Of a stretch of DNA of 64,000 nucleotides, positions 8,294-58,680 are shown piece by piece. The notes under the pieces are model-generated. The model was not told where the DNA came from. It did no database searches and was given only the letters and a program-made list of their open reading frames with translations. Within the stretch, counting starts at the first letter, position 1; the number at the start of each line of letters is the position of its first letter. This DNA is from an uncultured Candidatus Saccharibacteria bacterium (GTDB taxonomy: Bacteria > Patescibacteriota > Saccharimonadia > Saccharimonadales > JACDBH01). The DNA lies in NCBI GenBank assembly GCA_964490245.1, contig CAZBAF010000001.1, positions 25,149 to 89,148 of the forward strand, read 5' to 3'. Position numbers and translations under genes: made by a program.

Positions 8294-8310
8294 AACCTAC
8301 CTAGCTTATC

Positions 8311-8352
8311 AGTTTTTAATTTTCAATCATTAATTTCTAATTTTCATTGAAT
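8311..8352 (-). repeat. degenerate heptad array, GAAAATT family (reads GAAAATT on the minus strand)
   Basis: Plus strand reads agttttt aattttc aatcatt aatttct aattttc attgaat. It ends 18 nt upstream of the minus-strand trmH-like start. Confidence 0.7.
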
Positions 8353-8407
8353 TTTCAATATCTCAATGTTCAGGCTGTTTCGACTATTGCGTTATTGCTT
8401 ATTGAAT

Positions 8408-8435
8408 GAAATTGCCAAATTAGAAATTGAAAATT
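8408..8435 (+). repeat. degenerate heptad array, GAAAATT family
   Basis: gaaattg ccaaatt agaaatt gaaaatt, immediately upstream of the pilB promoter-like TTCCCA-N17-TATAAT (8435-8463). Inverted relative to 8311-8352. Confidence 0.7.
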
Positions 8436-8472
8436 TCCCATGCCGTGCGCTTATGGCTATAATGTATCCATA

Positions 8473-10098: not shown

Positions 10099-10380
10099 TG
10101 CGCCTATTTTTGGTGTGATAATTTACCCCAGGCCGTTGACACTTCTTCTTCGTATGTTCATATACGTCTTTAAAATGGAGGCCTGACCTCAGGACAAATT
10201 ACCCTTGTCCACAAAATAGCCGCTTAACAGTGGTTTTCCCGTCACAAATTTCATCTGTAGCTTTACAGGGCTAGTTGGCAGGGTTGTTTGGAAAAACCGC
10301 CCGCTGCAAGAAGATAAAATTTCAGGCCAGAGTTTTTGATTTTGACAGTACAAAACTTACCTGGCTTCATACACGCTATC

Positions 10381-10534
10381 TTTTTATTATAGCATACTTG
10401 TCAAGAGTTTGTCAATATCTACCCCTGTTACATGTTATAGACTAGCCAACGTTACCAAGAGAGATATCCTGCCTAAACCCCATATTTCCTGTTTCTTATT
10501 CCATATTTCATATTTCTCTGCAGCGAACCATAAT
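10381..10534. repeat. left copy of a 154-bp perfect inverted repeat (partner 22707-22860)
   Basis: Verified base by base: the reverse complement of 10381-10534 equals 22707-22860. Imperfect homology extends to about 10295-10566. Confidence 0.95.
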
Positions 10535-10568
10535 CACCTATTATCTATTACTCTAGAGTTGCCGCGTC

Positions 10569-11702
10569 CTAAACAATAACCCTGGCAACAGCCTCAACCA
10601 CGCCGGGATCAAACGGTCCGGGGATAATCTTTTCAGCTGTTGGCTGCGGCACAAGGTCGGCCAGGGCCTGAGCGGCGGCCAGTTTATGCTGGTCGGTGAT
10701 TTTAGTAACGCCGTTATCCAGCGCACCTCGGAATATTCCCGGGAAGCCAAGCGAATTATTAACTTGATTCGGGAAATCGCTGCGGCCGGTGGCGATCACG
10801 GCGGCGCCGGCCTCGCGGGCCAGGTCGGGCAAGATCTCGGGCTCGGGGTTGGCCATTGCAAAAATAATCGGATTATCAGCCATGCTGCGTACCATATCGG
10901 CCGTAAGCAGGCCGGCCCGGGACACACCGATAAACACATCGGCGCCCATCAGGGCGTGCTCGAGCGAGCCGTTGAGGTGCTTGGGGTTGGTAAAGACCAG
11001 CAGTGAACGCTTTTCTTCATTCAAATCCGTACGATCCTTACTGATAATACCCTTGCTGTCGACGGCTACAATCTCTGCCTGCGTGTAGAGATTAAGCAGT
11101 TTAATAATGGCCGTGCCGGCGGCTCCGGCACCCACGACCACAATGCGGGCTTCGTCCAGTTTGCGGCCGGTCAGTTTGGCGGCATTGATCAGGCCGGCCA
11201 GAGTCACGATGGCTGTGCCGTGCTGGTCGTCGTGCATGACCGGTATATTCAGCTCGGCTTTTAGGCGCTCTTCAATCTCGAAACACTTGGGGGCAGAAAT
11301 ATCCTCCAGGTTAATACCGCCAAAGGACGGCGCGATGGCTTTGACGGCAGCGATAATCTCTTCCGGTTCGTGCACATCCAACACAATCGGTACAGCGTCG
11401 ACGTCGGCAAAGTGCTTAAACAGCATCGCTTTGCCCTCCATGACCGGCATGGCGCCATGCGGCCCGATATCGCCCAGGCCCAGTACGGCTGAGCCGTCCG
11501 ATACCACCGCCACCAGATTATTGGTCCAGCTGAGCTGGCGCAGCTCGTCGGGGTGTGCGGCCGCGTATTGTGCCACGCCGCCGACTCCGGGGGTGTAGTA
11601 CATGCTGAGCTTCTCTTTGCTGTCCGGAATGTCGCGCAGTGAGGTTGATATTTTGCCTTTTTTTTCGCGGTGCAGGTTTAGTGCTTCTTCATAAATATCC
11701 AT
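10569..11702 (-). CDS. NAD(P)-dependent malic enzyme (short form)
   Basis: 377 aa. LSMYYTPGVGGVA, VVSDGSAVLGLGDIGPHGAMPVMEGKAMLFK and VVVGAGAAGTA are malic enzyme motifs. Confidence 0.9.
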   Translation of the reverse strand: MDIYEEALNLHREKKGKISTSLRDIPDSKEKLSMYYTPGVGGVAQYAAAHPDELRQLSWTNNLVAVVSDGSAVLGLGDIGPHGAMPVMEGKAMLFKHFADVDAVPIVLDVHEPEEIIAAVKAIAPSFGGINLEDISAPKCFEIEERLKAELNIPVMHDDQHGTAIVTLAGLINAAKLTGRKLDEARIVVVGAGAAGTAIIKLLNLYTQAEIVAVDSKGIISKDRTDLNEEKRSLLVFTNPKHLNGSLEHALMGADVFIGVSRAGLLTADMVRSMADNPIIFAMANPEPEILPDLAREAGAAVIATGRSDFPNQVNNSLGFPGIFRGALDNGVTKITDQHKLAAAQALADLVPQPTAEKIIPGPFDPGVVEAVARVIV

Positions 11703-11722
11703 GTCAATCAGTGTATAGTTTT

Positions 11723-11772
<50 letters not shown>

Positions 11773-11907
11773 CGCTATTGATGCCATGATTGTTTAGGTA
11801 TGTAGGCATCAGCTTTGATGTATACAGCTTTGGGCGCCGGCTTTTTTTTAGAATCGCCGTAAAATTATCGAATTTTAAAAATTGTAATTTTAAAATGATT
11901 CCTACTC

Positions 11908-11936
11908 TTGCTTTAAGAGGTGAAATAGCGTATACT
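11908..11936 (+). promoter_or_regulatory. sigma70-like promoter TTGCTT-N17-TATACT, 10 nt before the rplS ATG
   Basis: Hexamers and spacing read directly. No Shine-Dalgarno fits between the -10 box and the ATG. Confidence 0.45.
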
Positions 11937-16963: not shown

Positions 16964-17021
16964 GATGCCAGGGGGGTGTGCGCGTGGCGGCAAAGCCCGG
17001 TAGACAACTAAGACTCACCGC

Positions 17022-17056
17022 CATTAACCAACCACTGGCAACTAATCACTAAAAGA
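17022..17056 (+). repeat. degenerate heptad array, TAANCAC family
   Basis: cattaac caaccac tggcaac taatcac taaaaga, in the nusA 5' leader just before the AAAGGAG Shine-Dalgarno. Confidence 0.6.
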
Positions 17057-19127: not shown

Positions 19128-21623
19128 ATGATGCCATCATCACCTGATTTTCAGGAATTTTTGAATCATCTTACGGACAATGCGCTGCAAAGTCTTAAGC
19201 ATGCAGACGCCATTGCCCGCAGCTTTAACAGCCCGTACATTGGTACGGAGCATTTGCTGTTGGGTGTGCTGGCCCAGGACAGCTCAATGGGGGCCAAGAT
19301 GCTGGAAGGTGCAGGCGTGACGCTGGAGCGCGCCCGGGTTGCGCTTAACCTGACGCCAAAAAGCATTGTTATTAATATGGGGGCAAAGGGCCTGAGCGAG
19401 ACTGCCAAGCTGACGCTCAAGATGGCCTACGAACTGGCCCAGGAATTTAACCAGGAATTTTGCGGGACCGAGCACATTCTCTACAGTATTCTCAGTCAAA
19501 AGAACGCCCGCGCCACCACGCTGCTGCGTGATATGAGTGTCAACGTAGACGGTCTGACGGGCGAACTCGAGCAGTTCCTCAACCGCCAGCAGTACGAGGA
19601 CAACAGCGATACAACTTCGCGCCGCCGTGCCAAGCGCAGCCGCGGTAAAACAGCACTTGATATTTACGGTACAGATCTAACAGCTCAGGCCAGAAGCGGC
19701 AAGCTTGATCCGGTTGTGGGGCGCGAGGCGCAGATTCGCCGGGTTATTACCATCCTCAACCGTCGCACCAAGAACAACCCGGTTCTGATCGGTGAGCCCG
19801 GTGTCGGTAAGACTGCCATTGTCGAGGGTCTGGCGCAGCGCATTATTGCCGAGGACGTGCCGGACAGCCTGATCGACAAGCGGATTATCACCCTTGATCT
19901 GGCCGGTATGATTGCCGGTACCAAGTACCGCGGTGAGTTTGAAGAGCGGCTTAAGAAAGTCATGGCCGAACTCGAGCAGGACAATAAAGCCATCATATTT
20001 ATTGATGAGCTGCACCTGATTGTCGGCGCCGGCGCTGCCGAAGGGTCGATGGACGCCGGAAACATTCTTAAACCGTCTCTGGCCCGCGGACACATACAGC
20101 TGATTGGCGCCACTACTACAAACGAATACACCAAATATGTTGAAAAAGACGCCGCACTTGAGCGCCGCTTCCAGCCGGTACAGGTGCCCGAGACCACAGT
20201 GCCCGAAACACTGGCCATCTTAAAGGGCCTGCGCAAGCATTACGAACAGTTCCATAGTGTCGCCATTGGTGACAGCGTGCTTGAAGACACCGTGACTTTA
20301 GCTAAGCGCTATATCAATGACCGCTTTATGCCCGACAAGGCAATAGACCTGCTGGATGAGGCAGCTGCCCACCTGCGTGTCGACAAGGGCAAGACGCCGC
20401 CGGCCTTGCGCAAGCTGCAAAAAGAGCTCAAGCTGCTTAATATCCGTATCGATGATGCAGTCGACAGCGAAGATTACCAGAAGGCTGCCGAGTACAAGCA
20501 GCGCGCTTCACAGATTCGCGCCGAGATTGAAAAACTCCAGGCTAAGGGCGCCGGCGGTCGCAAGCTCAAGCTGACCAGCGAAGACGTGGCTGACGTTGTG
20601 GCCCGTATGACCGGTGTACCGGTTAACAAGGTTATCCGCAGCGAGGCCAAATATCTGCGCAATCTTGAGCAAAACCTGAGCAAGCATATTATCGGCCAGG
20701 ACGAAGCAGTTGAGGCGCTGGCGCGTGCTGTGCGCCGTAACCGCGTTGGCATTGGTCAGACATCACGTCCGATCGGCTCGTTCATTTTCCTGGGCCCCAC
20801 CGGTGTGGGTAAGACCGAGCTGGCCCGCGTGCTGGCCCGCGAATTCTTTGGGTCGGATAACGCGCTCGTCAAAATCGATATGAGCGAGTTCGGCGAACAC
20901 CACACAGTCTCGCGGCTGGTCGGTGCACCGGCCGGTTATGTCGGTTACGATGACGGCGGCCAGCTGACAGATAAGATTCGCCGCCAGCCCTACAGCGTCG
21001 TGCTGTTTGACGAAATCGAAAAAGCCCACCCCGAGGTCTTTAACATGCTGCTGCAGCTGCTCGAGGACGGGCGGCTCAGCGATGCCAAAGGTCGCGCCAT
21101 TGACTTTACTAATACCATTGTCATCATGACCAGTAACATCGGTGCCGAAAAGCTGCAAAAAGAAGCCAGCTTCGGGTTCCAGGCGGCAGGCCGCAAAGAC
21201 ATAGAGGATCTGGACGAACTGCACGCCGAGAACAAGCACAAGGTGCTGGACGATCTCAAAAAACTTCTGCGTCCGGAGCTGCTGAACCGTATCGACAAGA
21301 CCATCGTTTTCCGCGCCCTTACCAAAAAAGACGCGTTGAGCATTATGGATCTGCAGCTTGATGAGCTGCGTTCGCGGCTGGTCAAACACGGTATTGGCCT
21401 GCAGGTCTCGCCGGCCGCCAAGCAGGTGCTGCTCGAAAAGGGCTACGATGCCAAGAACGGTGTCCGGCCTATGCGCCGGCTGATTGCTGATGACATTGAG
21501 GACCGGATTGCCAACGGTTTGCTTGATGAGGAGTACCAGAAGGGCGACATCGTTCAGGTTGGTGCCGCGAAGGGCAAGCTGGCCTTTAGCGTCCTGCAGG
21601 AAAAGGCCGCCCGGGTCAGCTAG
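19128..21623 (+). CDS. clpC: ATP-dependent Clp protease ATP-binding subunit ClpC
   Basis: 831 aa. Two Clp_N repeats, two AAA+ modules ([15 protein letters not shown]; [15 protein letters not shown]) and a UVR-like linker ([23 protein letters not shown]). Confidence 0.93.
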
Positions 21624-21705: not shown

Positions 21706-22674
21706 ATGCGCATCGGGAAGGTACTGGGTTTTGGAACGGTGTTGCTGTCGCTGGCAGCCTTGCTGCTGATGACAGTGTTCCGGCAGGATATCCAGGACTG
21801 GCGGCGTCTGCAGGGATACACGCCGCCGCCCGAAATCGTCGCTTTGGCCCAGGACACCACAATGTTGGATTCTGCCCGGCGTCTGTTTTATATTCAGCAC
21901 CCGCAGCTTACCGATAAGGTGACTTTTAATGAGCATTGCCGTCAGAACGAGCAAAGTATTGTGCTGGGGTGTTATGTCAGCAATCACGGTATCTACCTGC
22001 TGGATGTCACTGATGAACGGCTGGCCGGTGTAAAGCAAGTCACAGCCGCGCACGAGCTGCTGCATGCGGCGTATGAGCGTTTGTCTGACAAAGAGCGCCG
22101 TCAGGTTGATGGCTGGCTCCAGCAGGTCTATGACGGGCTCAATGACGAGCACGTCAAAAAAACCGTCGAGCTGTACCGCGAACATGACCCGTCCGTGGTC
22201 CCGAACGAGCTACATTCCATTATCGGCACCGAGGTGCGCGACCTGCCCGTACATCTTGAGGAGTACTACAGCCGATATTTTAGCGACCGGCTGAAGATTG
22301 TGGCGTTCTCTGAACAGTACGAGCAGGCCTTTATCGAGCGCCGCAACCAGATACGCGGCTATGACGAGCAGTTGGCAACGCTCAAAGGCCGGATAGAAGG
22401 CCTGCAGAATGACCTGGCGTCAGCACATGCCGAGCTGACCGGACAGCGCAGCCACATGAACCAGCTGCGCCGCGATGGCCAGATAGAGGCCTACAACAGC
22501 GAGGTACCGCGCTACAACGCGCGCGTCAACCAGTACAATCGTGATATAGACCGGCTGCAGACGCTAATTGCGCAGTATAACGATCTGGTTCAGCAACGTA
22601 ACGCCATTGCCAGCGAAGAAGCCGAACTGGTGGAGGCTATCGACAGCCGGACTGCTATTCCGCGGCAACTCTAG
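21706..22674 (+). CDS. membrane-anchored hypothetical protein with HExxH motif and C-terminal coiled coil
   Basis: N-terminal TM helix (VLGFGTVLLSLAALLLMTVF), VTAAHELLHAAY, and a heptad-rich C-terminus (RYNARVNQYNRDIDRLQTLIAQYNDLVQQ). Confidence 0.6.
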   Translation: MRIGKVLGFGTVLLSLAALLLMTVFRQDIQDWRRLQGYTPPPEIVALAQDTTMLDSARRLFYIQHPQLTDKVTFNEHCRQNEQSIVLGCYVSNHGIYLLDVTDERLAGVKQVTAAHELLHAAYERLSDKERRQVDGWLQQVYDGLNDEHVKKTVELYREHDPSVVPNELHSIIGTEVRDLPVHLEEYYSRYFSDRLKIVAFSEQYEQAFIERRNQIRGYDEQLATLKGRIEGLQNDLASAHAELTGQRSHMNQLRRDGQIEAYNSEVPRYNARVNQYNRDIDRLQTLIAQYNDLVQQRNAIASEEAELVEAIDSRTAIPRQL

Positions 22675-22706
22675 AGTAATAGGTAATAGGTGATAGATAA
22701 TAGGTA

Positions 22707-22860
22707 ATTATGGTTCGCTGCAGAGAAATATGAAATATGGAATAAGAAACAGGAAATATGGGGTTTAGGCAGGATATCTCTCTTGGTAACGTTGGCTAGT
22801 CTATAACATGTAACAGGGGTAGATATTGACAAACTCTTGACAAGTATGCTATAATAAAAA
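22707..22860. repeat. right copy of the 154-bp perfect inverted repeat (partner 10381-10534)
   Basis: See the left copy. Imperfect homology extends to about 22664-22945. Confidence 0.95.
22826..22855 (+). promoter_or_regulatory. strong sigma70-like promoter TTGACA-N18-TGcTATAAT inside the repeat, pointing toward radA
   Basis: Hexamers read directly. The mirror copy on the minus strand at 10386-10415 points toward the pilB 3' end. Confidence 0.6.
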
Positions 22861-22962
22861 TATAGGGTGCATGAAGCTAGGCAAGCTTTGTACTGTCAAA
22901 ATCCCACCAGAGGCCTTAAGTTTGCTTAAGGTTTGCGGCGGGATACACGTTATACTAAGGCT

Positions 22963-32710: not shown

Positions 32711-33240
32711 GGATCATCAGCGGCGACCTGGGCGGTCGGGTGTTCAATGACGTGCCCGGACACCGGACCCACCCTATGGCCGAGAAAATTCGCGGCGCTC
32801 TGTTTAACACACTAGGGGATATTACGGGCCTAAGCGTGCTCGACGCCTACGGCGGCACTGGCGCGCTGGCTTTTGAGGCATTAAGCCGCGGGGCGGCACA
32901 CGCGACTATTCTTGAAGCCGACAAAAACGCCGCCCGCACCATAAAAGAGAACATTCAGGCGCTGGGTCTGGGTGACCGTACGACCGCCAGCCGCATGTAT
33001 GCGCACGCCTGGAGCCGGCGTAATCCCGACGTGCAGTTTGATCTGGTGCTGCTTGATCCGCCGTATGATGCGGTCGAACCTAAGGATTTACTGCGGCTTG
33101 CCGCACACACCAGGCCGGGCGGCATGATTGTTCTGTCCTTGCCGCCGGACAGCGGGTTTCGGTATGCCGCCAGCCGGCAGGAGCTTTTACAGCACAAGAA
33201 CTATGGCGACGCCGAACTATTCTTCTACCGCCAAAGCTAA
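32707..33240 (+). CDS. rsmD: 16S rRNA (guanine966-N2)-methyltransferase RsmD
   Basis: RIISGDLGGR...HRTHPMAEKIRGALFNTLGD, LDAYGGTGALAFEALSRGA and VLLDPPY. Confidence 0.88.
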   Translation: MRIISGDLGGRVFNDVPGHRTHPMAEKIRGALFNTLGDITGLSVLDAYGGTGALAFEALSRGAAHATILEADKNAARTIKENIQALGLGDRTTASRMYAHAWSRRNPDVQFDLVLLDPPYDAVEPKDLLRLAAHTRPGGMIVLSLPPDSGFRYAASRQELLQHKNYGDAELFFYRQS

Positions 33241-33244
33241 CCCC

Positions 33245-33279
33245 TAGCCACTAATCACTAGTCACTAAACACTGATCAC
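33245..33279 (+). repeat. degenerate heptad array, TAANCAC family
   Basis: tagccac taatcac tagtcac taaacac tgatcac, between the convergent stops of rsmD and the 33279-33932 gene. Confidence 0.75.
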
Positions 33280-37095: not shown

Positions 37096-37163
37096 CGGCA
37101 ACAATTTTAAAATAGGCTGGCTGTCTGTCAATCAAATAACCTCAGTTTGCTACTGTATTCAAT

Positions 37164-37191
37164 GAAATTTAGAAATTGTAAATTGAAAATC
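37164..37191 (+). repeat. degenerate heptad array, GAAAATT family
   Basis: gaaattt agaaatt gtaaatt gaaaatc. Its last unit supplies TTGAAA (37183-88), which with N17 and TACAGT (37206-11) sits 8 nt before the tig ATG. Confidence 0.7.
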
Positions 37192-37219
37192 ACCACTGTA
37201 TCTGTTACAGTGGCTTTCT

Positions 37220-38503: not shown

Positions 38504-38942
38504 GCATCCTCAACTAAGCCAAGAGGTAGGTGTGGTGTCCGCGGATGTGCAATCGCTAGGCGAAGCAGCCGGCTGTTTGTTGAGTGATTTTCCGGGTGTA
38601 GCTGACGAGGTCAAGTCTATTATTGAGTCTGATGCACCGACGGAGGTGAGTGCTTTTCAGCTGGAGGTGCTTCGCTGGGATCTTGAGCGCCGGCGTGACG
38701 AGATTTTTGCCGACGTCGAGCCAGAGGAGCTGTCACCCTGGACACCGGCGTTGCCACAGTCCGTATCCCAGTCCGAACTTATAGACCGCATAACACCGCG
38801 GCAGCTGGCTACGGGCGCCAGCTGCTTGTTCCTGGCCGGTGCTTCGATAGGGCTGGCCAGCGGCGAGTATGACCAGGCCGGCCGGGCCGGTATGATCGCA
38901 GCGTTTTTGTTGGGAATCAGCAGCTTTTTAAAGAAGAATTAG
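38487..38942 (+). CDS. hypothetical protein with C-terminal TM helices
   Basis: 151-aa ORF overlapping the tig end by 17 nt. Acidic N-terminal part; GASCLFLAGASIGLA and MIAAFLLGISSF are hydrophobic. Confidence 0.5.
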   Translation: MQEPNKHPQLSQEVGVVSADVQSLGEAAGCLLSDFPGVADEVKSIIESDAPTEVSAFQLEVLRWDLERRRDEIFADVEPEELSPWTPALPQSVSQSELIDRITPRQLATGASCLFLAGASIGLASGEYDQAGRAGMIAAFLLGISSFLKKN

Positions 38943-38965
38943 CACTCGGGCTTGACGACTGCTAA
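38939..38965 (+). promoter_or_regulatory. CIRCE-like inverted repeat overlapping the clpP promoter
   Basis: TTAGCACTC-gggcttgac-GACTGCTAA (left arm 9/9, right arm 8/9). TTGACG (38952-57)-N17-TACACT (38975-80) is embedded in it. Confidence 0.7.
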
Positions 38966-39668: not shown

Positions 39669-40048
39669 CTGCTCTCATGGCTCTTGACTCATGTCCCGTA
39701 ACTCTGTAAACTATACAGTAGAAGTAGTGTAGGTAGCTGCTCGTGATATTTAACGCGTATGAATATCGCCAAAAAGTATGCTCCTAGTGATCCTTCGGCC
39801 GAAACAACTAAAGCGCTAAAACAGATACAAAAGCAGTACAATTTATCAACAGATTCGCAGCTTTTTGCGCTTGAGACAGATTCAGTGCGGTAACACGGAA
39901 TGTATGTAAGCCGTACGTAAGTATCGACTGCATATACCGGTCGGAACCACGCCGAATATGACCAAGAGGCTGCCAGATGGCGGCGGCTTTGCCGGCGACA
40001 TGTCAGCGGGCGCAAAAGTTTGCGACTTAAGTGGGAGTAATTTTGAAT

Positions 40049-47635: not shown

Positions 47636-47917
47636 TTACCCTCTAACAACAGGTTTCATTTTTTGTGTCCAAAAAACCAGCTTTTTCATGAGTTTGCAAC
47701 CAGTGTGCTTCATCAGTTTTTACAAAACCGAGAGAAGGGCAGAAGCCCGCTAGGGGGGACGTTCTTCGCCGCCTGTTCCGACCACTATCTACTGCCTGCC
47801 AACTGCTTAGTCAACCCTCTCTCCGCACTTCTAGCTCTCAACCTCTACCACTTCCGACCGCTCAGATTCCTCTCATGCTTGCAATAAGTGATAAATTGAC
47901 ATAACGTTAACATAATT

Positions 47918-48508
47918 ATGATACAAAGCTACCCTGTTAGCTATCGGTTGGATAATAGTAATGAAGTCCTTGAGGCCTTAAGCTACGACCCGATGACTGC
48001 CATTACCGAAATTCAGACTGAGCTCGCTTTGACTGACTGCGGTTTAGCGATTATTGCTGCAGCAGATTTGCTCACAACTGGCATTCAGGATCGAGCAGAG
48101 CTATACAAGCACAACGCTTTTACCACTGCAGGCATCATAGCCTGCGGTGCCTTTATGGAATCGGATGCCCCAGCTGAACTTCGTAACCACACGCTCTCTG
48201 CTTTATCTATGCGAAGCGCCCCCATTAACCTGCTCTCAGATAAGTCAGAGGAAACGCTAAGGGCTTTTGAGGAGCTGTCGGATAATGGCCACGCCGCACA
48301 TCCGGAGTTTGGGCCACATACGAGGATTGTCGTGGAATACTATACAGAGGTCACGCAAAATACGGCAATCGGAAGATGCGCTTTCTTGGGCGCAGGATAT
48401 ACGCTCTATCAGCTTGACCGGGCTTGGGATAGGGCGCGGGATGTCGGCATTGATAAAATTGTCAAAGAAGAAACAGCCAAAGCCGACTGGGACAAGTTGC
48501 TGCAATAA
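47918..48508 (+). CDS. hypothetical protein
   Basis: 196-aa ORF and the first gene of the island. No motif recognised. Confidence 0.5.
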   Translation: MIQSYPVSYRLDNSNEVLEALSYDPMTAITEIQTELALTDCGLAIIAAADLLTTGIQDRAELYKHNAFTTAGIIACGAFMESDAPAELRNHTLSALSMRSAPINLLSDKSEETLRAFEELSDNGHAAHPEFGPHTRIVVEYYTEVTQNTAIGRCAFLGAGYTLYQLDRAWDRARDVGIDKIVKEETAKADWDKLLQ

Positions 48509-48582
48509 AGCTGTGCGGCCCATGCCCATAAGCTTGGCGATCTAAATAAAGACAGAGTAGTATAACTCATGGAGGGTTGTGT

Positions 48583-48883
48583 ATGGGCGATCTGGTAAAG
48601 CTACAGCAGAAGGTAGTGGCATTCAGAGATGCACGCGAATGGAAACAGTTCCGGATATAGCTCTGTCGCTCGTGCTGGGGCCGCGGAGGTACTGGAGCAC
48701 TTCCAATGGAAATCACCGGATGAGATAGAAAGGTATCTGGAGTCAAATAGACAAGACTTCGCCGACAAGCTGATAGATGTGTTGTAGTGGGTACTTGTCA
48801 TGGCTCATGACTTCGATATTGATATACACCGAGTTATAAACTATGCAAACAGCAGTCATTATCAAGCCAAACGCAAAGCATAA
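48583..48883 (+). pseudogene. decayed MazG-like nucleotide pyrophosphohydrolase
   Basis: A GGAGGG Shine-Dalgarno precedes ATG 48583, which gives MGDLVKLQQKVVAFRDAREWKQFRI*. MazG-like sequence continues in two other frames: DIALSLVLG, then AAEVLEHFQWKSPDEIERYLESNRQDFADKLIDVL*WVLVMAHDFDIDI. This implies frameshifts near 48650-54 and 48677-81 plus an in-frame TAG at 48785-87. Confidence 0.7.
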
Positions 48884-49067
48884 GGAAGAAGTGATTCAGG
48901 CTGATGACGGCAGTCTGGTTGTTTATACCAAAGCGCCGGCAATCGAGGGCAAGGCAAATCAGGCAGCAATTGAGCTGCTTGCCAAGCATTACGGCGTCAG
49001 CAAAAGCCAAATACAACTCCTCCGCGGCCACACGTCCAAAAGAAAAATTTTCAAGATAAATATGTAG
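48843..49067 (+). CDS. DUF167 (YggU-like) family protein
   Basis: 74 aa: IIKPNAKHKEEV...LVVYTKAPAIEGKANQAAIELLAKHYGVSKSQIQLLRGHTSKRKIFKI, matching the DUF167 pattern. Confidence 0.75.
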   Translation: MQTAVIIKPNAKHKEEVIQADDGSLVVYTKAPAIEGKANQAAIELLAKHYGVSKSQIQLLRGHTSKRKIFKINM

Positions 49068-49185
49068 CACTCACCGCGTCAGCCAAGAATGTGACTTATA
49101 TAATTAATGCCAAAAGTGCTTGATTTTGGGTTTAAATGAGCGTATTATCCCATGTTCGCCTGTAAGCGAACCCAGAAAGAGGACT

Positions 49186-49566
49186 ATGTCTTTATTAAAT
49201 AAGTATCAAGAAATCAAAAACAATCCACGCGCTGGCGGTTACAGCGATATCCGCATGTGGCCCTGCTATGTGGCACTTTGTTTGAGTACCCTATTTTTCG
49301 CGCAGTGGTTGGGGTTGTTTTGGAGCTTTACCGTTATAGGTTTGCCAGTATTTGCTATTAGCTTACTGGCTGTAGGCATACATAAGCCAGAGAAAGCACC
49401 CATCAAATCCTGGAAGATGTACGAAGCTATCGAGCAAAAGAATAGGGAATTTGAACGCAGTAATTACCTATTACGCCGCAACATGAAGATTATCCAAGAA
49501 GACGAGCGGATCGTGCGCCAGCTCAAGAAGGCAGACCGCGTCCACCGAAACGCACGCAGCGCCTAG
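49186..49566 (+). CDS. small membrane protein, hypothetical
   Basis: AAAGAGGA Shine-Dalgarno before ATG 49186. Two TM helices, then a basic helical tail. Confidence 0.55.
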   Translation: MSLLNKYQEIKNNPRAGGYSDIRMWPCYVALCLSTLFFAQWLGLFWSFTVIGLPVFAISLLAVGIHKPEKAPIKSWKMYEAIEQKNREFERSNYLLRRNMKIIQEDERIVRQLKKADRVHRNARSA

Positions 49567-49616
49567 CGGATGGTATGTAAAGATAGTAGAATATGGCTAA
49601 AGATTAGGAGCAAATT

Positions 49617-51434
49617 GTGGACGGGTTCAGTGCCGATATTAAAGACGAGCAATACAAAAAACTTAAAGAATTATTCCCAGAAGTTTTTTCAGAAGGAAAG
49701 ATAGACTGGGATAAGCTAAGGGCTACACTTGGCGAGCATATAGATTTTAGCGAACGCTACGGCCTAAGCTGGAAGGGTAAGTCCGGCGTCTTTGCCAAGA
49801 TTCAGGAAAAAACCGTCAGCACCCTCCATCCGCAGCGCGAAGAATCGGTTGATTGGGACGCGACCGGGAACATGTTCATAGAGGGCGACAACTTAGAGAC
49901 TCTCAAGGTGCTCCACAAAGCCTACTACGGCAAAGTCAAGATGATTTACATTGATCCGCCGTACAACACGGGCAATGACTTCATTTATAGCGATAGCTTC
50001 AAACAGTCCCGCCGCGATTACGAAGAAGAGGCCGGTCTGGTTGATGAAGAAGGTAACACCACACGCGACGATGGCATGCGCGTCAATTCCGGCGGCAACA
50101 AGCACAGCAATTGGCTGAATATGATATACCCACGTCTGTGGCTCGCAAAGAACCTTTTACGGCAAGATGGCGTGATCTTTATCAGTATTGACGGCAACGA
50201 AGTCCATAACCTCCATCTCATCATGAACGAGATTTTTGGGGAAGAGAATTTTGTTGGTATTTATGTCAAGCAATCAAAAGTTGGCGGTGGAAGCGATTCT
50301 CGTCACATTGTCCAGGAGCACGAATACTGTGTGGTATATGCGAAAAGTGTTAATGATCTTCCTGATATGTATATAGAGCACAGCCCTGATTACTTGAAGC
50401 GGTATAAAGAAAAGGATGAGAAGGGTAGGTATTTTTGGGATACGTTTGCACGACCGGGGCTAAAAAATCCAATTTACTATGACATAGCATTACCAGATGG
50501 AACGGCAGTGAATAAGGGCTGGATATGGAGTAAGGACAGATTTGAAAGAGGGATTAAATCTGGTGAGGTAGTGATACGTCAGACGACGAAAGGTAGTTGG
50601 GGTGTATATTTTAAGCAAAGGCTTAATGAGAGCGGGAAGAAGCCGCGTTCATTAACCATGGATTTTGGAGGTACGGCACAGGGTAAGATAGATACTGGCT
50701 CGCTTTTTGATAACGTATCTATGTTTGAGTATCCGAAGTCGGTTAAATACATCAAGGAGTTAATCCGCACGATAGGCGATAAGGAAGCTGTAATTCTAGA
50801 CTTCTTCTCTGGCTCAGGCACGCTCGCTCACGCTGTGATGGAGCTCAATGCTGAAGACGACGGCAACCGCAAGTGGATTTGTGTGCAACTGCCAGAACTG
50901 ACCGACAAAAAGAGTGAAGCATATAGGGCTGGCTATAAGACCATTGCCGAGATTGCTCGCGAACGCATCCGCCGCGCCGCCAAGAAAATAGCCGAGGGTT
51001 ACAAAGACAAAATTGCTGAGCGCGAGACGCCACTTTATCTTGGTTTCCGCTCGTACGTCTTGGGTGATAGTAACTTCAAAAAGTGGAATGAGCTGGTACG
51101 CGACCCAGAAGAAATTCGCCAGCAGACTTTGGAGCAGATAGATCCAATTGAGCCAGGCGCTTCTGATGAAGATTTGCTAACCGAAATCCTGCTCAAGCAC
51201 GGCATTTCACCACTTGCCAAACTGGAGCAGCATGACGGCTTTATCTACGTGCCGTCAGACAATCTGGCAATTTCACTGACGCACAACATGACAAAAGAGC
51301 TGTTCAAGTCCATGCTCGCCAAAAACCCAAGCCAAATCATCGTACTAGACATGGCGTTTAGCGATGATTTAAACCTAAAAACCAACCTATCTCTGCAAGC
51401 TGAACAGAGAAACATCATCCTGGAGGTGTTGTAA
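49617..51434 (+). CDS. mod: type III restriction-modification DNA methyltransferase (Mod), beta-class N6A/N4C
   Basis: AGGAG Shine-Dalgarno (49606-10) precedes the GTG start. Motif IV IYIDPPYNTGNDF lies upstream of motif I VILDFFSGSGTLAHAV, with a variable region between them, which is the Mod order. 605 aa. Confidence 0.88.
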   Translation: MDGFSADIKDEQYKKLKELFPEVFSEGKIDWDKLRATLGEHIDFSERYGLSWKGKSGVFAKIQEKTVSTLHPQREESVDWDATGNMFIEGDNLETLKVLHKAYYGKVKMIYIDPPYNTGNDFIYSDSFKQSRRDYEEEAGLVDEEGNTTRDDGMRVNSGGNKHSNWLNMIYPRLWLAKNLLRQDGVIFISIDGNEVHNLHLIMNEIFGEENFVGIYVKQSKVGGGSDSRHIVQEHEYCVVYAKSVNDLPDMYIEHSPDYLKRYKEKDEKGRYFWDTFARPGLKNPIYYDIALPDGTAVNKGWIWSKDRFERGIKSGEVVIRQTTKGSWGVYFKQRLNESGKKPRSLTMDFGGTAQGKIDTGSLFDNVSMFEYPKSVKYIKELIRTIGDKEAVILDFFSGSGTLAHAVMELNAEDDGNRKWICVQLPELTDKKSEAYRAGYKTIAEIARERIRRAAKKIAEGYKDKIAERETPLYLGFRSYVLGDSNFKKWNELVRDPEEIRQQTLEQIDPIEPGASDEDLLTEILLKHGISPLAKLEQHDGFIYVPSDNLAISLTHNMTKELFKSMLAKNPSQIIVLDMAFSDDLNLKTNLSLQAEQRNIILEVL

Positions 51435-51435
51435 C

Positions 51436-52392
51436 GTGCAGGTTGTGCGTGTTCAGGAATCAAAAAGAGGGAACAGCTACATTATTAAGACTCTTAAAGA
51501 TAAAAAAACGATTGTATCTCGTGCTATTATTATGTTTTCGCCTGGCGGAAAATCATTGAAGCTTGGTCGTTATTATAAAGATAGCGGTAAGCTTGTGTCT
51601 AATTCTCCAAAAAGTGAACTAACCCTAGACGATGATGAGCTAAAAAATCTTGTTAAGCATCTTGCAGATAATTATCGTTTAGTATTGCGCAATCCGGGTT
51701 CATATATTAAGACTGACGATGCGTTGGATGAGGAGTTATTGCGCAAATTAAAATTCATCTTTACAAGCAAAAAACGAGATGATGTGATTAATTTTCTTTC
51801 AAATAATCCGTTTTTGCCTTCTGACATAGAGAATCTATTGGAGATCAAAAGAAGACAAAAGGCAGTAGAAGAATTTCGTGCCAAGCTAAATACTAACGAA
51901 ACTGAATATGAGTGGCAGAAATGGTTCTCTGAAAACGACTGGGTACTAGGAAATGATTATGCGGAAATATTAGAAGAAAGGCAGATTAATACGCGAAACA
52001 TTGCCGATTTTTTGGTGCGTGATTTCGATGGATTTGTTGACTTGATAGAGATTAAGCGGCCAGAAGGTGGCTTATCATTCTGGGCTAGTCAACGTGATCA
52101 CGGCAATCTAGTTCCCCATAGCGACTTAATAAAGGCAATCACTCAGGTACAAGTATATCTATACGAATTAGAAAAAGAGCTGGATAGCATTACGACGCAA
52201 CAGCGCTTGTCAGGTGCGTCCATAATCAAGCCTCGTGCTACTTTGATATTTGGCCGCTCATATGATTGGAGTGATGACGAAAGAAATGCGTATCGCATTC
52301 TGAACGCCAGCTATTCCAATATATCCATACTGACTTATGATCACGTATCAAGAAGGGCACAGAAATTAATTATGAAGAAAGAAAAACAATGA
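51436..52392 (+). CDS. DUF4263 (Shedu SduA-type) PD-(D/E)xK nuclease-domain protein with unrecognised N-terminal domain
   Basis: GGAGG (51422-26) precedes GTG 51436, which is 1 nt after the mod stop. C-terminal half: ETEYEWQKWFSENDWVLG, then ADFLVRDFDGFVDLIEIKRPE (D..D..ExK, nt 52006-52065), then RATLIFGR...NISILTYD. Its stop overlaps the res ATG (ATGA). Confidence 0.75.
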   Translation: MQVVRVQESKRGNSYIIKTLKDKKTIVSRAIIMFSPGGKSLKLGRYYKDSGKLVSNSPKSELTLDDDELKNLVKHLADNYRLVLRNPGSYIKTDDALDEELLRKLKFIFTSKKRDDVINFLSNNPFLPSDIENLLEIKRRQKAVEEFRAKLNTNETEYEWQKWFSENDWVLGNDYAEILEERQINTRNIADFLVRDFDGFVDLIEIKRPEGGLSFWASQRDHGNLVPHSDLIKAITQVQVYLYELEKELDSITTQQRLSGASIIKPRATLIFGRSYDWSDDERNAYRILNASYSNISILTYDHVSRRAQKLIMKKEKQ

Positions 52393-55169
52393 AACTCCAA
52401 TTTGAACCGAACCAGCAGTATCAGCTAGATGCCATCAAAACAGTTGTTGATGTGTTTGAAGGCCAGCCGAAGGATAAGGGCGGGATTGTGTTCGGCGGTC
52501 AAGGCGAGCTGGATTTACCTGGCAAACAGTTAAGCCTTGAAGACGCCAGTGCGAGCGGCAATACACTAGTGTTAAGCAATGAGCAGCTTATTAAAAATGT
52601 TCATGCTGTGCAAGGCCAGCTTGATCTTCCGCTGGCTGAAGTGATCGACGAGGACGATGTGCTTACAACCGAATCAGGTGAGCCAAATGTAACCGAAGAT
52701 GGCGATCCGCTGGAAGCTTCTTTGGGTTCAAGTTTAATGCATGGCCTTAACTTCTCCATTGAAATGGAAACCGGCACAGGCAAAACCTATGTGTACTTAC
52801 GCACAATCCATGAGCTATACCAAAAGTACGGCTGGAAGAAGTTTATTATCGTTGTACCGAGCGTGGCGATCCGCGAAGGCGTGCTGAAAAACTTAGATAT
52901 CACGCGTGAGCATTTTGCTGAGCTGTACAACAAGCCCGAGATGAATTATTACGTTTGGGATAGCAAAAAGACCGGCCAGGCGCGTGAATTTGCCGTCAAC
53001 GATACACTGCAAATCATGGTCGTCAACATTGACAGTTTCTCTAAAGCTGAAAACATCATGAACAAAGACAGCGATTACGGACGGCCGCTTGATTTTATCC
53101 GCGCTACCCATCCGATCGTTATTATTGACGAGCCGCAGAATATGGAAACCGAGGTGCGCCGCAAGGCTATAAACAGCCTGAACCCGCTTTTTACTTTGCG
53201 CTACAGTGCTACTCACAAGCATGTCTATAATTTGCTGTATCGTTTAACACCGGTAGATGCGTATAACCTGGGGCTGGTTAAAAAGATTGAAATCCATAGT
53301 GTGGTGAGTGAGGACAGCTATAACGGTCCGTATATCAGCGTGCTTTCGCTAGAGCGGACAAGCAAGCGGAGTTCATACACCAAGATTGAAGTTGATGCAA
53401 GTGACAAGCGTGGCTTGCAGCGCAAAGTTGTTAAAGCTGGCCCGGGCGTAGATTTAGCACAACTGACGGGGCGCTCTGTGTATGAAGGCTTTTACATTGA
53501 AGCTATAAATCACACCGAAAACTGCGTGGAGTTTAGCAACGGCAAAAAGGTATATGTCGGTCAGAAAGATGAAGCATTGCGCGAAGAAATCCTGAAACGG
53601 CAGATTGAGTTGACCATAGAGGATCATTTTGAAAAGCAGCAGAAGCTGGCCAGTCAGAACATAAAGGTGCTAAGCCTGTTCTTCATAGACAAGGTGGCGA
53701 ATTACCGCGAGTACACCGAGGCTGGTTGGACAAAAGGTAAGTTCGCGCGCTGGTTTGAAGAGCTGTATGAGAAGGTGGCCGCCAAATATCCCGGCGTCAT
53801 AGATGACCTGACGGCCGAACAAGTACATAACGGCTACTTTGCCGCCGATAAGAGCGGCTATTGGAAGGATAGTAAAGACACTAAGGGTGAAGGCGCCAAG
53901 ACGAAGGACGATGACACGGCATACCAACTGATTATGAAAGACAAAGAGCGGCTATTGGATATCAACGAACCGTTAAGGTTCATCTTTAGCCACTCTGCGC
54001 TGCGTGAGGGCTGGGATAACCCGAACGTCTTTAACATCTGTACGCTCAATGAGACATCAAGCGAGATGAAAAAGCGACAAGAGATCGGCCGCGGCCTACG
54101 CTTGCCGGTCAATGCCAATGGCGAGCGAATTTATGACGAGAACATCAATGTGCTTACGGTGATCGCAAACGAAAGTTATGAAGAATTTAGCCGCAAGCTG
54201 CAGACCGAGATTACTGAAGAAACGGGCGTTGAATTTAGTAAGGGCAACATCAAGAACCGTGCTGACAGGCAGAAAATCAGCTTCCGCAAATCTGTAATGC
54301 TAGATCCGAACTTTAAAGAGCTCTGGGAACGTATCAAACACAAGACGACGTATCACATAAACATTGGTCCGGATAAGCTAGTTGATGAGGTCGTACGGCG
54401 ACTTGAAGATATGGCAATCGTGCCGCCGCAGATTTCTGATACGCGAACGCTGATTAGTCACATGGGTGAGACGTTTGAAAGGAAGAAGCAGGAAGGCTTG
54501 GATCGTGCAAGCCGTTCGGGCGTGCAGCACGTGCCCAATATCCTTGAAGAAATTCAAAAACGCACGCACCTGACGCGCAAGCTAATCTTTGAAATCCTTG
54601 ACCGCGCAGATATATTCTCGTACCTGGCGCTCAATCCGCAGCAGGCTGTTGACGGAGTAAGCGAGGCGGTTATACAAATCAAGCAGCAGCTTGCAGTTGA
54701 CGGCATTAAGTATGAGCGCACCGGCGACGTGTACGATGTAAGGCTGTTTGAGAATGAAGAGCTTGAAAGTTACTTGTACAACGCTATGAGCAAGAATGGT
54801 GCAGTCAAAGCGGAGCAAGAGGACAAGACAACCTATGACTACGTCGTGGTGGATTCTGATGTAGAGTATCAACTCATGAATGTTTTGGAGAACACGGACA
54901 GTGTGAAGTTTTATACCAAGCTCCCAGGCTGGTTCAAAATTGATACGCCGCTTGGTACATACAATCCTGACTGGGCGATCGTGTTTGAGGACGACAAAAA
55001 GATTTACTTCGTCGCCGAAACGAAAGGAACGGATAATCTGTATGACGAGTCGTTACGCGAACACGAGCGCGGCAAGATCAAGGCAGGCCGGAAGCATTTT
55101 GAGGAAATCGGCATGCCTTATGCTGCGCCGGTTTCATCGCTCCAAAGTGCACTGCGTAAGCTGATATAG
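52389..55169 (+). CDS. res: type III restriction enzyme Res subunit (SF2 helicase plus C-terminal endonuclease)
   Basis: 926 aa. N-terminus MKLQFEPNQQYQLDAI, Walker A METGTGKTYVY, motif II VIIDEPQNM, SHSALREGWDNPNVF, and a C-terminal nuclease YNPDWAIVFEDD..IYFVAETKG. Confidence 0.88.
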   Translation: MKLQFEPNQQYQLDAIKTVVDVFEGQPKDKGGIVFGGQGELDLPGKQLSLEDASASGNTLVLSNEQLIKNVHAVQGQLDLPLAEVIDEDDVLTTESGEPNVTEDGDPLEASLGSSLMHGLNFSIEMETGTGKTYVYLRTIHELYQKYGWKKFIIVVPSVAIREGVLKNLDITREHFAELYNKPEMNYYVWDSKKTGQAREFAVNDTLQIMVVNIDSFSKAENIMNKDSDYGRPLDFIRATHPIVIIDEPQNMETEVRRKAINSLNPLFTLRYSATHKHVYNLLYRLTPVDAYNLGLVKKIEIHSVVSEDSYNGPYISVLSLERTSKRSSYTKIEVDASDKRGLQRKVVKAGPGVDLAQLTGRSVYEGFYIEAINHTENCVEFSNGKKVYVGQKDEALREEILKRQIELTIEDHFEKQQKLASQNIKVLSLFFIDKVANYREYTEAGWTKGKFARWFEELYEKVAAKYPGVIDDLTAEQVHNGYFAADKSGYWKDSKDTKGEGAKTKDDDTAYQLIMKDKERLLDINEPLRFIFSHSALREGWDNPNVFNICTLNETSSEMKKRQEIGRGLRLPVNANGERIYDENINVLTVIANESYEEFSRKLQTEITEETGVEFSKGNIKNRADRQKISFRKSVMLDPNFKELWERIKHKTTYHINIGPDKLVDEVVRRLEDMAIVPPQISDTRTLISHMGETFERKKQEGLDRASRSGVQHVPNILEEIQKRTHLTRKLIFEILDRADIFSYLALNPQQAVDGVSEAVIQIKQQLAVDGIKYERTGDVYDVRLFENEELESYLYNAMSKNGAVKAEQEDKTTYDYVVVDSDVEYQLMNVLENTDSVKFYTKLPGWFKIDTPLGTYNPDWAIVFEDDKKIYFVAETKGTDNLYDESLREHERGKIKAGRKHFEEIGMPYAAPVSSLQSALRKLI

Positions 55170-55186
55170 AATAAGATTCTAGACAA

Positions 55187-55696
55187 TCAACGAAATATTA
55201 GGGAAAATATGCGGTCGCTGAGGTTTTGGTGGTAGGTTCTGCCATAATAGTTTTTAGTCTTCAGGGATTTGGGTTTTGAAAGTTGGGCAATGGGTATTTT
55301 GCCAGGCAAGGGCGCGCTACACTTGCGGATCACATTTGGGCTGATGATTTTATACCAATTCTTTCCTTCGGTTGTGAAAAGATAGATATACTTAGTATGG
55401 TAATGGCGCGCTGTAATGCACATGCGCTTTGCAATGCCTTTAGTCAAGTCTTTGCGGTATTGCTTGACTTCAATAATTGCACGGGCTGTGCGGCCAAAGT
55501 CGTCAACAGCCAGTTCAAAGTCTGGTGTGTATGTTTTTCCAACATGTTTGATGCCAAGCTGTGGCCTTAGCCACTGGCCGCTGAAATTATACTTGGTGAT
55601 AAATTGCTCGAGAGCCTTGAACTCAGTTTTTGAATCAAGCCATACAGTCTGGCCATCAATAGTGACCTGGTGCCTGTGTCCTCTCCTATAAGCCAT
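55187..55696 (-). CDS. stand-alone PD-(D/E)xK nuclease, TnsA-endonuclease-N-like
   Basis: 169 aa: LDSKTEFKALEQF...GKTYTPDFELAVDDFGRTARAIIEVKQYRKDL resembles the TnsA N-terminal catalytic pattern (E...PDF...D...EVK). No tnsB or tnsC nearby. Confidence 0.5.
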   Translation of the reverse strand: MAYRRGHRHQVTIDGQTVWLDSKTEFKALEQFITKYNFSGQWLRPQLGIKHVGKTYTPDFELAVDDFGRTARAIIEVKQYRKDLTKGIAKRMCITARHYHTKYIYLFTTEGKNWYKIISPNVIRKCSAPLPGKIPIAQLSKPKSLKTKNYYGRTYHQNLSDRIFSLIFR

Positions 55697-56059
55697 GCCC
55701 GGATTATCTCTATAAATAGCTTGTTTTGCAATATCCTAAGTTTAGGAGGGTAAAGGAGCGAGAAAGGTCAACTAAGCAAAGATACGAAAGCTACAGAAGA
55801 CCGCGAGACCAGGGTGAGTCATGCAATATTCTCTAAAACTACTAATAAGTGTTACGGGGGTAACAGTTATTTATAATTTATGGGGACACGCTTTTGCGCT
55901 GGAGTTGCTGTGAGGAAATGTCAAACTGTGGTAGAGGGTTCTAGATCGTGTCCGGCACGTCAAACACTTGTGGACAGTGAAATGCCACGTTAAAAAACTG
56001 CGCTTATGCTTGCAGAGGAGAGACTGGATCTTAACAAGCAATAATTTCGTAAAAACAGG

Positions 56060-56455: not shown

Positions 56456-56577
56456 GTCATGTCCTTTTTAAGTATGCTTTTTTATTCTACACCCAATGGA
56501 GAGTGTTCGAAGTGCTGACAAGACACATGCTTCCTAAGCGGCTGCATTCGGCGTGCATTTGTAGCATAATAGACACT

Positions 56578-57027: not shown

Positions 57028-57075
57028 TTCGGCTTACTTGATGCCGTTTATGTAAATGCGGGCCCTAACAGTCTG

Positions 57076-58596: not shown

Positions 58597-58680
58597 GCGT
58601 ATAGATCGTGTGCCGGTACCGGCTCTGCCTTCAGTATAGCCAGGGGCTATCACAAAAACCAGGGCGGAGATTTTTTATCA

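Follow-up and report, generated by a model that had tools for sequence, protein, structure and literature searches.

Heptanucleotide repeats are over-represented in the intergenic DNA of many bacteria and often form inverted pairs, and polymerase slippage has been offered as a hypothesis for their origin (PMC4679880, PMC4692102; citing Mrazek 2007). Examples include the cyanobacterial STRR, the GGGAATC repeats of Xanthomonas and Nostoc, and the TAACTGA repeats of Beggiatoaceae (PMC4679880, PMC4692102). The over-representation has been known since 1990 and 2007, and its origin and function are still unexplained. Here, we describe arrays of degenerate 7-nt units in the intergenic DNA of a 64-kb stretch (hereafter, the window) of a genome from the Saccharibacteria (TM7, Saccharimonadales), including arrays upstream of trmH-like (hereafter, trmH), pilB, tig, and rpsG genes. 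With moderate confidence, we interpret these arrays as heptad-periodic intergenic repeat elements that are altered by slippage and copied as blocks, and whose effects on promoters are incidental. Such arrays are unexpected in a streamlined genome of ~1 Mb, where they make up about one-tenth of the intergenic DNA, and their retention under strong deletion pressure argues against simple junk. They also provide a concrete system for testing why the unit length is seven.

The arrays resemble the long simple-sequence repeats (LSSRs) and STRR of other bacteria in their tandem 7-nt units, intergenic bias, patchy distribution among lineages, inverted pairs, and variation in length and sequence between relatives. 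Those repeats have no established function, and a bias in polymerase slippage has been proposed for them. The differences are that the arrays described here occur in a lineage of the Candidate Phyla Radiation (CPR) with ~1-Mb genomes, belong to several A/T-rich families rather than to one G-rich unit, and are short and degenerate, with a palindromic organization of ~120 bp and block copying between loci. The TAACTGA repeats of marine Beggiatoaceae, cyanobacteria, and Bacteroidetes (PMC4679880) are likewise short (2–6 copies), lie in forward orientation upstream of housekeeping genes (including those for ribosomal proteins and RNA polymerase), and have a scattered phylogeny that suggests transfer. 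However, TAACTGA is a single unit that overlaps the ribosome-binding site within a few nucleotides of the start codon, whereas several unit families are found here and a -10 hexamer separates the array from the ATG at most sites. Placement of the TAACTGA type was not found at any of six genes: a -10 intervenes at trmH, pilB, tig, and the malic-enzyme gene, and a Shine-Dalgarno (SD) sequence intervenes at rpsG and nusA. A literature text search that combined Saccharibacteria with tandem or heptamer repeats gave no mention of Saccharibacteria among the matches listed.

The preliminary description of this DNA reported four arrays with the consensus GAAAATT, at 8311–8352, 8408–8435, 37164–37191, and 60556–60590, and all four are present there, each on the strand of its neighboring gene. 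Counting exact or one-mismatch copies of GAAAATT was dropped as too strict, since the units are degenerate (only two clusters were found, and exact GAAAATT occurs just six times within arrays). Lag-p self-match scans (p from 4 to 12, with a threshold of at least 14 of 21 self-matches) were used instead, with 300 dinucleotide-preserving shuffles as the control. The ~6 kb of intergenic DNA in the window contain 11 period-7 stretches, compared with 0–1 for each other period and 0.26±0.52 (maximum 3) in the shuffles, confirming an excess of period 7 over shuffled controls. Only two period-7 stretches are found in the 58 kb of coding DNA, and the arrays cover ~695 of the 5,998 intergenic bases (about 11–12%). 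Lag-7 self-identity in the four arrays first described is 0.57, 0.62, 0.67, and 0.71, in the order given above; at trmH/pilB, lag 8 nearly equals lag 7, indicating a mixed 7/8 period. All three properties of the heptanucleotide-repeat class are thus found: excess over chance, intergenic bias, and (see below) changes in copy number by whole units.

GAAAATT itself is not special, as period 7 is common to unrelated unit families. Tandem Repeats Finder (TRF) assigns period 7 to 10 of the 25 non-redundant short tandem repeats of the window, and the units (TAGTGGC, with seven perfect copies, GTAATAG, GAAATAT, CACTAAT, TTAGTGG, CATTTGC, and AATTGAA) are mutually unrelated. At least five unit families can be distinguished, namely GAAAATT, GCCACTA/CACTAAT, TAATAGG, GAAATAT, and CATTTACC. 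No close strain of the source genome was found: the closest Tig is 67% identical among 185,579 species representatives, and the closest TrmH is 68% identical among 5.8 billion proteins. The comparison set consists of 80 other Saccharibacteria loci (1.3 Mb in total, at most ~21 kb each, with numbers prefixed by L). Their 57 period-7 stretches represent a mild enrichment over the 30–41 found for control periods, with strong enrichment in a small number of lineages (L036, L026, L005–L007, L049, and L044). These stretches are 14-fold denser in intergenic DNA (33 per 114 kb) than in coding DNA (26 per 1.22 Mb).

The evidence for block copying comes from the order of degenerate units at different loci. 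The arrays upstream of trmH and pilB belong to one element, designated F1, of which the tig array is a partial copy. The features concerned are as follows:

8318–8435, no strand assigned: F1, a 118-bp imperfect palindrome that fills the divergent trmH-pilB spacer, with arms at 8318–8367 and 8386–8435
8303–8311, minus strand: putative trmH extended -10, TGATAAGCT, of leaderless type, with the ATG at 8293 after a further 9 nt
8435–8463, plus strand: putative pilB promoter TTCCCA-N17-TATAAT (10/12 matches in the scan), followed by 9 nt and the ATG at 8473
37157–37193, plus strand: tig-proximal array, a partial copy of F1, the last unit of which forms the -35 TTGAAA (37183–37188)
37203–37219, plus strand: conserved extended -10 of tig, TGTTACAGT, from the promoter scan (hexamer at 37206–37211, then 8 nt and the ATG at 37220)

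The arms of F1 are 50 nt long, 74% complementary, and 18 nt apart, and the element ends in perfect 9-bp termini (AATTTTCAA and TTGAAAATT). These arms correspond to the previously reported arrays at 8311–8352 (minus strand) and 8408–8435 (plus strand), which had been described correctly as inverted with respect to each other, with the left array ending 18 nt from the trmH ATG and the right array abutting the pilB -35 (it runs into TTCCCA). Their orientation toward the two genes is trivial, since both are arms of one palindrome. As single-stranded DNA, F1 has a fold with z = -3.8. Relatives that have the same divergent trmH-pilB pair contain a ~75-nt spacer without arrays. F1 is collinear with the hisS-tig spacer of L006, with a score of 83 compared with 22.7±6.3 in dinucleotide shuffles. 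For the block-copying test, the 7-mers of one alignment partner were permuted 1000 times; the score was then 27.8±6.6, and none of the 1000 permutations reached the observed value. Within the window, the tig array matches 20 of 21 nt at 8332–8352 (left arm, inverted) and 15 of 16 nt at 8420–8435 (right arm), with scores of 42–46 versus 20–23±4.6 after permutation (0 of 1000).

A second element, F3, fills the hisS-tig spacer of both L005 and L007 and has a further copy in the rpoB-rpoC junction of L005 (nhmmer E = 6e-17). The two L005 copies, which are 7 kb apart, score 88 versus 24.5±6.7 after permutation (0 of 1000), and F3 matches are found on both strands. In addition, an exact 16-mer is common to the tyrS and rpoB-rpoC arrays of L036. 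Because the same order of degenerate units is found at non-orthologous sites, whole blocks have been copied, and the arrays are better described as copied elements than as promoter modules built in place.

Another element, F4, consists of ACCCCTA, CACTA-type heptads, and AACACTGAT. Its copies in the window, together with a duplicated segment that carries two further array types, are as follows:

11707–11781, minus strand: F4 copy upstream of the malic-enzyme gene, with a perfect (GCCACTA)7 at 11723–11772, then AAAACTAT-ACACTGAT and TATACA-N9-ATG
33240–33276, plus strand: F4 copy ACCCCTA(nnCACTA)3AACACTGAT, which fills an entire convergent spacer and has no promoter context
58677–58713, minus strand: F4 copy 24 nt upstream of a thrE-like gene
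22668–22761, plus strand: TAATAGG and GAAATAT arrays, which open a ~245-bp segment upstream of radA
22826–22855: promoter TTGACA-N18-TATAAT within the same ~245-bp segment, upstream of radA
10338–10580, minus strand: inverted duplicate of the radA-upstream segment, with arrays and promoter, in the convergent spacer between pilB and the malic-enzyme gene

The copies at 33240–33276 and 58713–58677 have 84% identity over 37 nt, and the F4 copies have both flanking motifs in common, including the non-repeat flanks. Orthologous convergent spacers in relatives are only 12–23 nt long. The malic-enzyme copy has the ACACTGAT end and the CACTA units in common with the other copies, and its perfect array, (GCCACTA)7 or (TAGTGGC)7 on the opposite strand (7.1 copies at 100% by TRF), is an expanded form of F4. 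Between the duplicates at 22662–22903 (plus strand) and 10580–10338 (minus strand), which are 96.7% identical, the sole indel is 14 nt long, corresponding to two heptads, and lies inside the TAATAGG array. Together, this indel and the perfect (TAGTGGC)7 show gain and loss of units over short times.

These data separate two processes that are usually conflated, namely slippage of units and copying of blocks. If slippage were the only process, the arrays would be simple-sequence repeats that were born independently in place from heptamers and are now decaying, with neither copying nor function. The perfect (TAGTGGC)7, the two-unit indel, and the different unit types that related genomes carry in the same hisS-tig spacer are all consistent with this explanation, as is the status of heptanucleotide repeats as the most over-represented LSSRs in many bacteria (PMC4679880, PMC4692102). 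However, it is very unlikely given that non-orthologous copies retain the order of degenerate units far beyond unit-permuted controls and that the F4 copies have non-repeat flanks in common. Slippage-variable 7-bp repeats between the promoter region and the gene are also known from hmw1A and hmw2A of Haemophilus influenzae (PMC8262952, PMC12721329). The hmw repeats are perfect over long tracts and belong to phase-variable adhesin genes, whereas only (TAGTGGC)7 is perfect here and it precedes a metabolic gene.

The sequences of the tig array and of half the TAGTGGC array are the same in an independent Logan assembly, so these two arrays are not assembly artifacts. The Logan contigs, which were checked for copy-number variation between strains, match the window exactly. 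One of these contigs from the same sample (L082, SRR7082966) ends inside the (TAGTGGC)7 array, at window position 11743; a perfect 49-nt repeat is expected to break a short-k-mer assembly, and the break therefore says nothing about heterogeneity. The duplicate at 10338–10580 lies in a convergent spacer of 470 nt, where its near-consensus promoter would drive only a 35-codon open reading frame (ORF; 10263–10370) or an RNA. Rfam gave no match at this duplicate.

Several properties of the elements are shared with miniature inverted-repeat transposable elements (MITEs), Neisseria Correia elements, and REPINs, which are non-coding imperfect palindromes of ~110–145 bp with inverted termini, dispersed copies, and insertions in intergenic and intra-operon spacers (PMC3116915). 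F1 has terminal inverted repeats (9-bp perfect termini on 118 bp), and multiple dispersed copies are present. The internal 7-bp periodicity, the absence of a cognate transposase or RAYT among the window genes scanned, and the non-palindromic structure of F4 and of F2 (described below), neither of which has inverted termini, are points of difference. On our interpretation, the elements would be non-coding blocks of 35–145 bp with an internal 7-bp beat. Whole-unit replication slippage lengthens and shortens the arrays, and arrays that are already degenerate are copied in blocks to further intergenic sites, in many cases as inverted pairs giving rise to imperfect palindromes. Such copying takes place within a genome and appears to occur between Saccharibacteria lineages as well, with transposition, recombination, and template switching as candidate routes. 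The preference for 7 nt may stem from a bias in polymerase slippage or from a protein that reads DNA in 7-bp steps. Persistence would be expected where a 7-nt unit is harmless, i.e., in the gap that separates a stop codon from the following core promoter, at operon junctions, and between convergent genes. In many cases, the array begins at or over the stop codon of the upstream gene.

The relationship between arrays and promoters depends on where transcripts begin. Among 1,090 Saccharibacteria genes, TANNNT hexamers peak sharply 14 nt before the start codon (103 versus a background of ~25). This peak is a signature of leaderless or near-leaderless transcripts and suggests that roughly a fifth of Saccharibacteria genes belong to this type. 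A separate SD-like peak is found at -14 to -9. At trmH, pilB, tig, the malic-enzyme gene, and rplS, the -10 is followed by 8–10 nt and the ATG, and the arrays lie just upstream of the -35/UP position or overlap it. In addition to tig (above), the core promoters and the rplS array are as follows:

trmH core promoter: TGATAAGCT-N9-ATG
pilB core promoter: TATAAT-N9-ATG, with the ATG at 8473
malic-enzyme core promoter: TATACA-N9-ATG
rplS core promoter: TTGCTT-N17-TATACT-N10-ATG
11861–11895, plus strand: quasi-periodic A/T-rich DNA (period ~7.5/15) that precedes the rplS promoter, TTGCTT-N17-TATACT (11908–11936)

Given this leaderless-type geometry, the arrays at these genes are upstream promoter DNA and not mRNA. 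The pilB promoter also bears on the start of that gene. The longest pilB ORF begins at 8440, yet TATAAT (8458–8463) falls inside it and an in-frame ATG follows 9 nt later, at 8473. In relatives, TATAAT or TATACT is followed by 9–10 nt and the pilB ATG. Judging from these patterns, the true start is probably 8473 and not 8440.

The preliminary description suggested that the heptads are reiterated promoter or UP-element-like modules. On this account, selection would favor A/T-rich heptads that serve either as UP elements or as a ladder-like series of -35 boxes, by which the alpha C-terminal domain of RNA polymerase or sigma region 4 is recruited. The part of the proposal that stands is that arrays abut leaderless-type core promoters, as they cover -35 to ~-70 of pilB, tig, trmH, the malic-enzyme gene, and rplS. 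Moreover, the A/T-rich UP-element position (~-40 to -60) fits pilB (where the array ends at 8435), tig, and rplS, and an ATTG/TTG core is common to the units of F1, F2, and F3. The tig promoter was described exactly, as TTGAAA(37183)-N17-TACAGT(37206)-N8-ATG(37220), with a TG preceding the -10. Its aTCTGTTAnAgT-N8-ATG is conserved in ~25 Saccharibacteria loci, and a TTGnnA lies precisely 17 bp from the -10 in all four array-bearing genomes (window, L005, L006, and L007), whereas array-free relatives have poor tig -35 boxes.

As a general explanation, promoter modules are nevertheless unlikely. Arrays are also found in the convergent spacer (33241–33278) and inside the rpsL-rpsG and rpoB-rpoC junctions, and the UP-element position is not occupied at rpsG, at nusA, or in that convergent spacer. 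The TTGAAA hexamers formed by the units had been regarded as -35-like. This holds only for tig; at trmH and pilB, they lie 11 and 25 bp from the -10, respectively, so the units are not -35 boxes there. Furthermore, GC-richer families such as GCCACTA lack TTG. A TTG is present 16–18 bp from the -10 in 4 of 6 array-associated promoters compared with 74 of 320 others. These four are without exception tig orthologs, representing two or three events, and the enrichment was rejected as independent evidence. A position bias toward promoters is not seen either. Arrays in co-directional, divergent, and convergent spacers number 30, 7, and 5, in proportion to the intergenic bases in these spacer types (65, 21, and 11%), and promoter-containing spacers are not preferred over convergent ones. 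The arrays are not a dedicated general promoter signal, although a promoter role at some sites is possible.

The interpretation as copied elements provides another explanation for the promoter associations. The arrays are tied to a leaderless promoter architecture in which the -10 lies ~8 nt before the ATG, so any element that lands upstream becomes the -35/UP region. With TTGnnnn units every 7 bp, ~3 in 7 insertions would place a TTG 16–18 bp from the -10. At tig, the insertion seems to have created a hybrid promoter, akin to those formed by the outward-facing -35 boxes of insertion sequence (IS) or Correia elements. Both kinds of element can donate promoter parts to neighboring genes. Effects on expression would be site-specific by-products and not the reason why the arrays exist. 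Separately, a palindrome with an 8-bp stem (CCACTGTA-TCTGT-TACAGTGG) spans the tig -10 (37193–37213). A similar palindrome is found in L006 and not in most relatives, and it could be an operator.

The rpsL-rpsG spacer contains a composite element, F2, with the following parts:

60469–60613, plus strand: F2 composite spacer element of 145 nt between rpsL and rpsG, homologous to the L052 spacer
60471–60530: left array of CATTTACC-type units
60540–60552: GC hairpin
60559–60593: right array of five AATTGAA units, previously described as the rpsG array
60591–60610: hairpin GCAAGTCC/GGAGTTGC, which covers the SD of rpsG

Among 31 rpsG-containing loci, array inserts are found only in the window, L052, and L049. 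In the other 28, rpsL is 1–4 nt away or another gene lies upstream. Arrays thus split a junction that is otherwise 1–4 nt long, just as they split the rpoB-rpoC junction, which is otherwise array-free. The F2 spacers of the window and L052 align with a score of 102 versus 11±5 (z = 18). With the SD hairpin left out, the score is 80 versus 21±6.2 after unit permutation (0 of 1000). F2-related arrays are also present at tyrS in L044, at tyrS and rpoB-rpoC in L036, and at rpsG in L049. A candidate promoter formed by the rpsG array (TTGAAA-N17-GAAAAT) is present in the window but not conserved in the homologous L052 spacer, and it was rejected, which is a further point against promoter modules. 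A phage origin of the elements was also rejected: matches to the F1 pattern, all at chance level, fell in A/T-rich coding DNA of viruses, and there were no matches to the F2 pattern.

The L049 insert (20160–20470) contains more than 25 units of TTTCAAG and GCCAAAT heptads, with an assembly gap among them. After these comes a diverged second copy of the last ~30 nt of rpsL, with its internal SD, directly before rpsG. This second rpsL end indicates that the insertion duplicated or preserved the original junction.

With an SD downstream, the arrays at rpsG and nusA are probably transcribed. The weak nusA array is as follows:

17020–17055, plus strand: weak CACTnnn/AACTAAT array 20–45 nt upstream of nusA and ahead of its SD (NusA domains were found in the product)

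These two arrays lie 12–45 nt upstream of SD-led starts, in probable transcripts, and a hairpin over the rpsG SD is conserved in the window and L052. Elements that act at the RNA level, with A/U-rich repeats or long imperfect hairpins serving as translational enhancers, S1- or CsrA-type binding sites, or RNase III processing sites, would account for arrays at rpsL-rpsG, at rpoB-rpoC, and in the nusA leader, in parallel to the role proposed for TAACTGA repeats (PMC4679880). However, the arrays at trmH, pilB, tig, and the malic-enzyme gene are upstream of leaderless -10 hexamers and hence outside the mRNA, and the RNA folds of two spacers are marginal compared with shuffles (z = -1.8 and -2.1). 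Rfam contained no family at the gathering threshold for the window and none at E <= 1 for the two spacers. An RNA-level function is accordingly a highly improbable account of the arrays. The SD hairpin itself, GCAAGTCC-(4 nt)-GGAGTTGC, is identical in the window and the distant L052, and only the loops differ (CAGA versus GGAA). This hairpin may serve as an operator of translation, for instance in autoregulation by S7.

Alternatively, the arrays may be binding sites for an oligomerizing protein that steps along DNA in 7-bp intervals, such as an omega-type ribbon-helix-helix repressor or centromere-binding protein, or an H-NS-like silencer that spreads over heptads, with the different families being read by different paralogs or through DNA shape. 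The TTTTGAT heptads of Vibrio cholerae ctxAB are the best experimentally studied case of 7-bp repeats as promoter-upstream protein-binding sites. They bind ToxR, ToxT, and H-NS, and promoter activity is tuned by how many heptads are present (bioRxiv 10.1101/2021.05.14.444153). The arrays described here are similar in that A/T-rich heptads lie upstream of the core promoter and run into it. In contrast, ctxAB is a single locus with perfect repeats, a copy number that varies among strains, and known binders. The preliminary description, which also considered protein-binding arrays, pointed out that period 7 is not the helical repeat; every third unit nonetheless lies on the same side of the helix, since 3 x 7 = 21 bp corresponds to two helical turns.

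The operator heptad of omega-type ribbon-helix-helix proteins is WATCACW. The F4 units AGCCACT, AATCACT, AGTCACT, AAACACT, and GATCACT resemble it, but of these five units (33240–33276) only one is an exact match and three have one mismatch, whereas F1 and F2 have no match. The direct and inverted arrangements that adjoin promoters, as well as the conservation of F2 across distant lineages, are also consistent with protein binding. However, at least five unrelated units would have to be read in a genome of ~1 Mb, and the genes concerned (trmH, pilB, tig, rpsG, nusA, malic enzyme, thrE, and radA) make no coherent regulon. A candidate protein was not identified, in a search that did not extend to small ORFs. 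We therefore consider protein-binding arrays to be improbable. A bolder version, which appears doubtful, is that the arrays represent a new class of portable heptad-periodic cassettes of CPR bacteria, moved or read by a 7-bp-stepping protein and serving as transferable promoter-upstream or operon-junction modules. If so, core-gene expression (tig, rpsG, rpoC, and pilB) would be rewired in genomes that are otherwise extremely compact.

Several points weigh against the interpretation of the arrays as copied elements with incidental effects. The window genes scanned include no transposase, and a target-site duplication was not recognized, with the F1 flanks in the window and L006 having no direct repeat in common; the copying mechanism thus rests on inference. 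The F2 spacers of the window and L052 are ~70% identical, compared with only 54% for the Tig proteins, and this level of conservation suggests purifying selection or transfer rather than neutrality. The recurrence of TTGAAAA and GGTAAAT units in distant lineages would also fit a selected function, as would the constant 17-bp spacing of TTGnnA in the four array-bearing tig promoters. What a purely neutral view chiefly fails to explain is the conservation of F2 across distant lineages and the recurrence of the same units. In addition, the evidence comes from 64 kb of the source genome and ~20 kb per relative, and gene calls in the relatives are crude, being based on longest-ORF heuristics.

Other features of the window are of separate interest. 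The stretch at ~47900–59650, between rpoC and rpsL, has a GC content of 0.43–0.49 compared with ~0.54 and contains genes for an N6/N4 DNA methylase, a Shedu SduA_C protein, a ResIII helicase-endonuclease, and a cytidine/dCMP-type deaminase, as well as several ORFs without a Pfam match. The distance from tig to rpsG is 23 kb in the window versus ~10 kb in most relatives. This stretch looks like an inserted defense island. No replication origin was found in the window, where cumulative GC skew is monotonic.

An inverted repeat, TTAGCACTC-N9-GA(C/G)TGCTAA, overlaps a TTGAC -35 box upstream of clpP (38939–38965) and is conserved across the Saccharibacteria loci inspected. Its CIRCE-like form and its conservation suggest that clpP is under HrcA-type control. 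The conserved rpoB-operon promoter, TTGACT-N17-TAAACT (39684–39712), has a weak 7-nt ACTCnnn beat and is flagged by the period-7 scan, yet it is a conserved promoter and not a dispersed element. A CTTGACTCTTGACTC array flagged in several loci was rejected for this reason, as it corresponds to the same rpoB promoter. In several of L011, L012, L036, L054, and L078, this promoter has a second TTGACT shifted by 7 bp.

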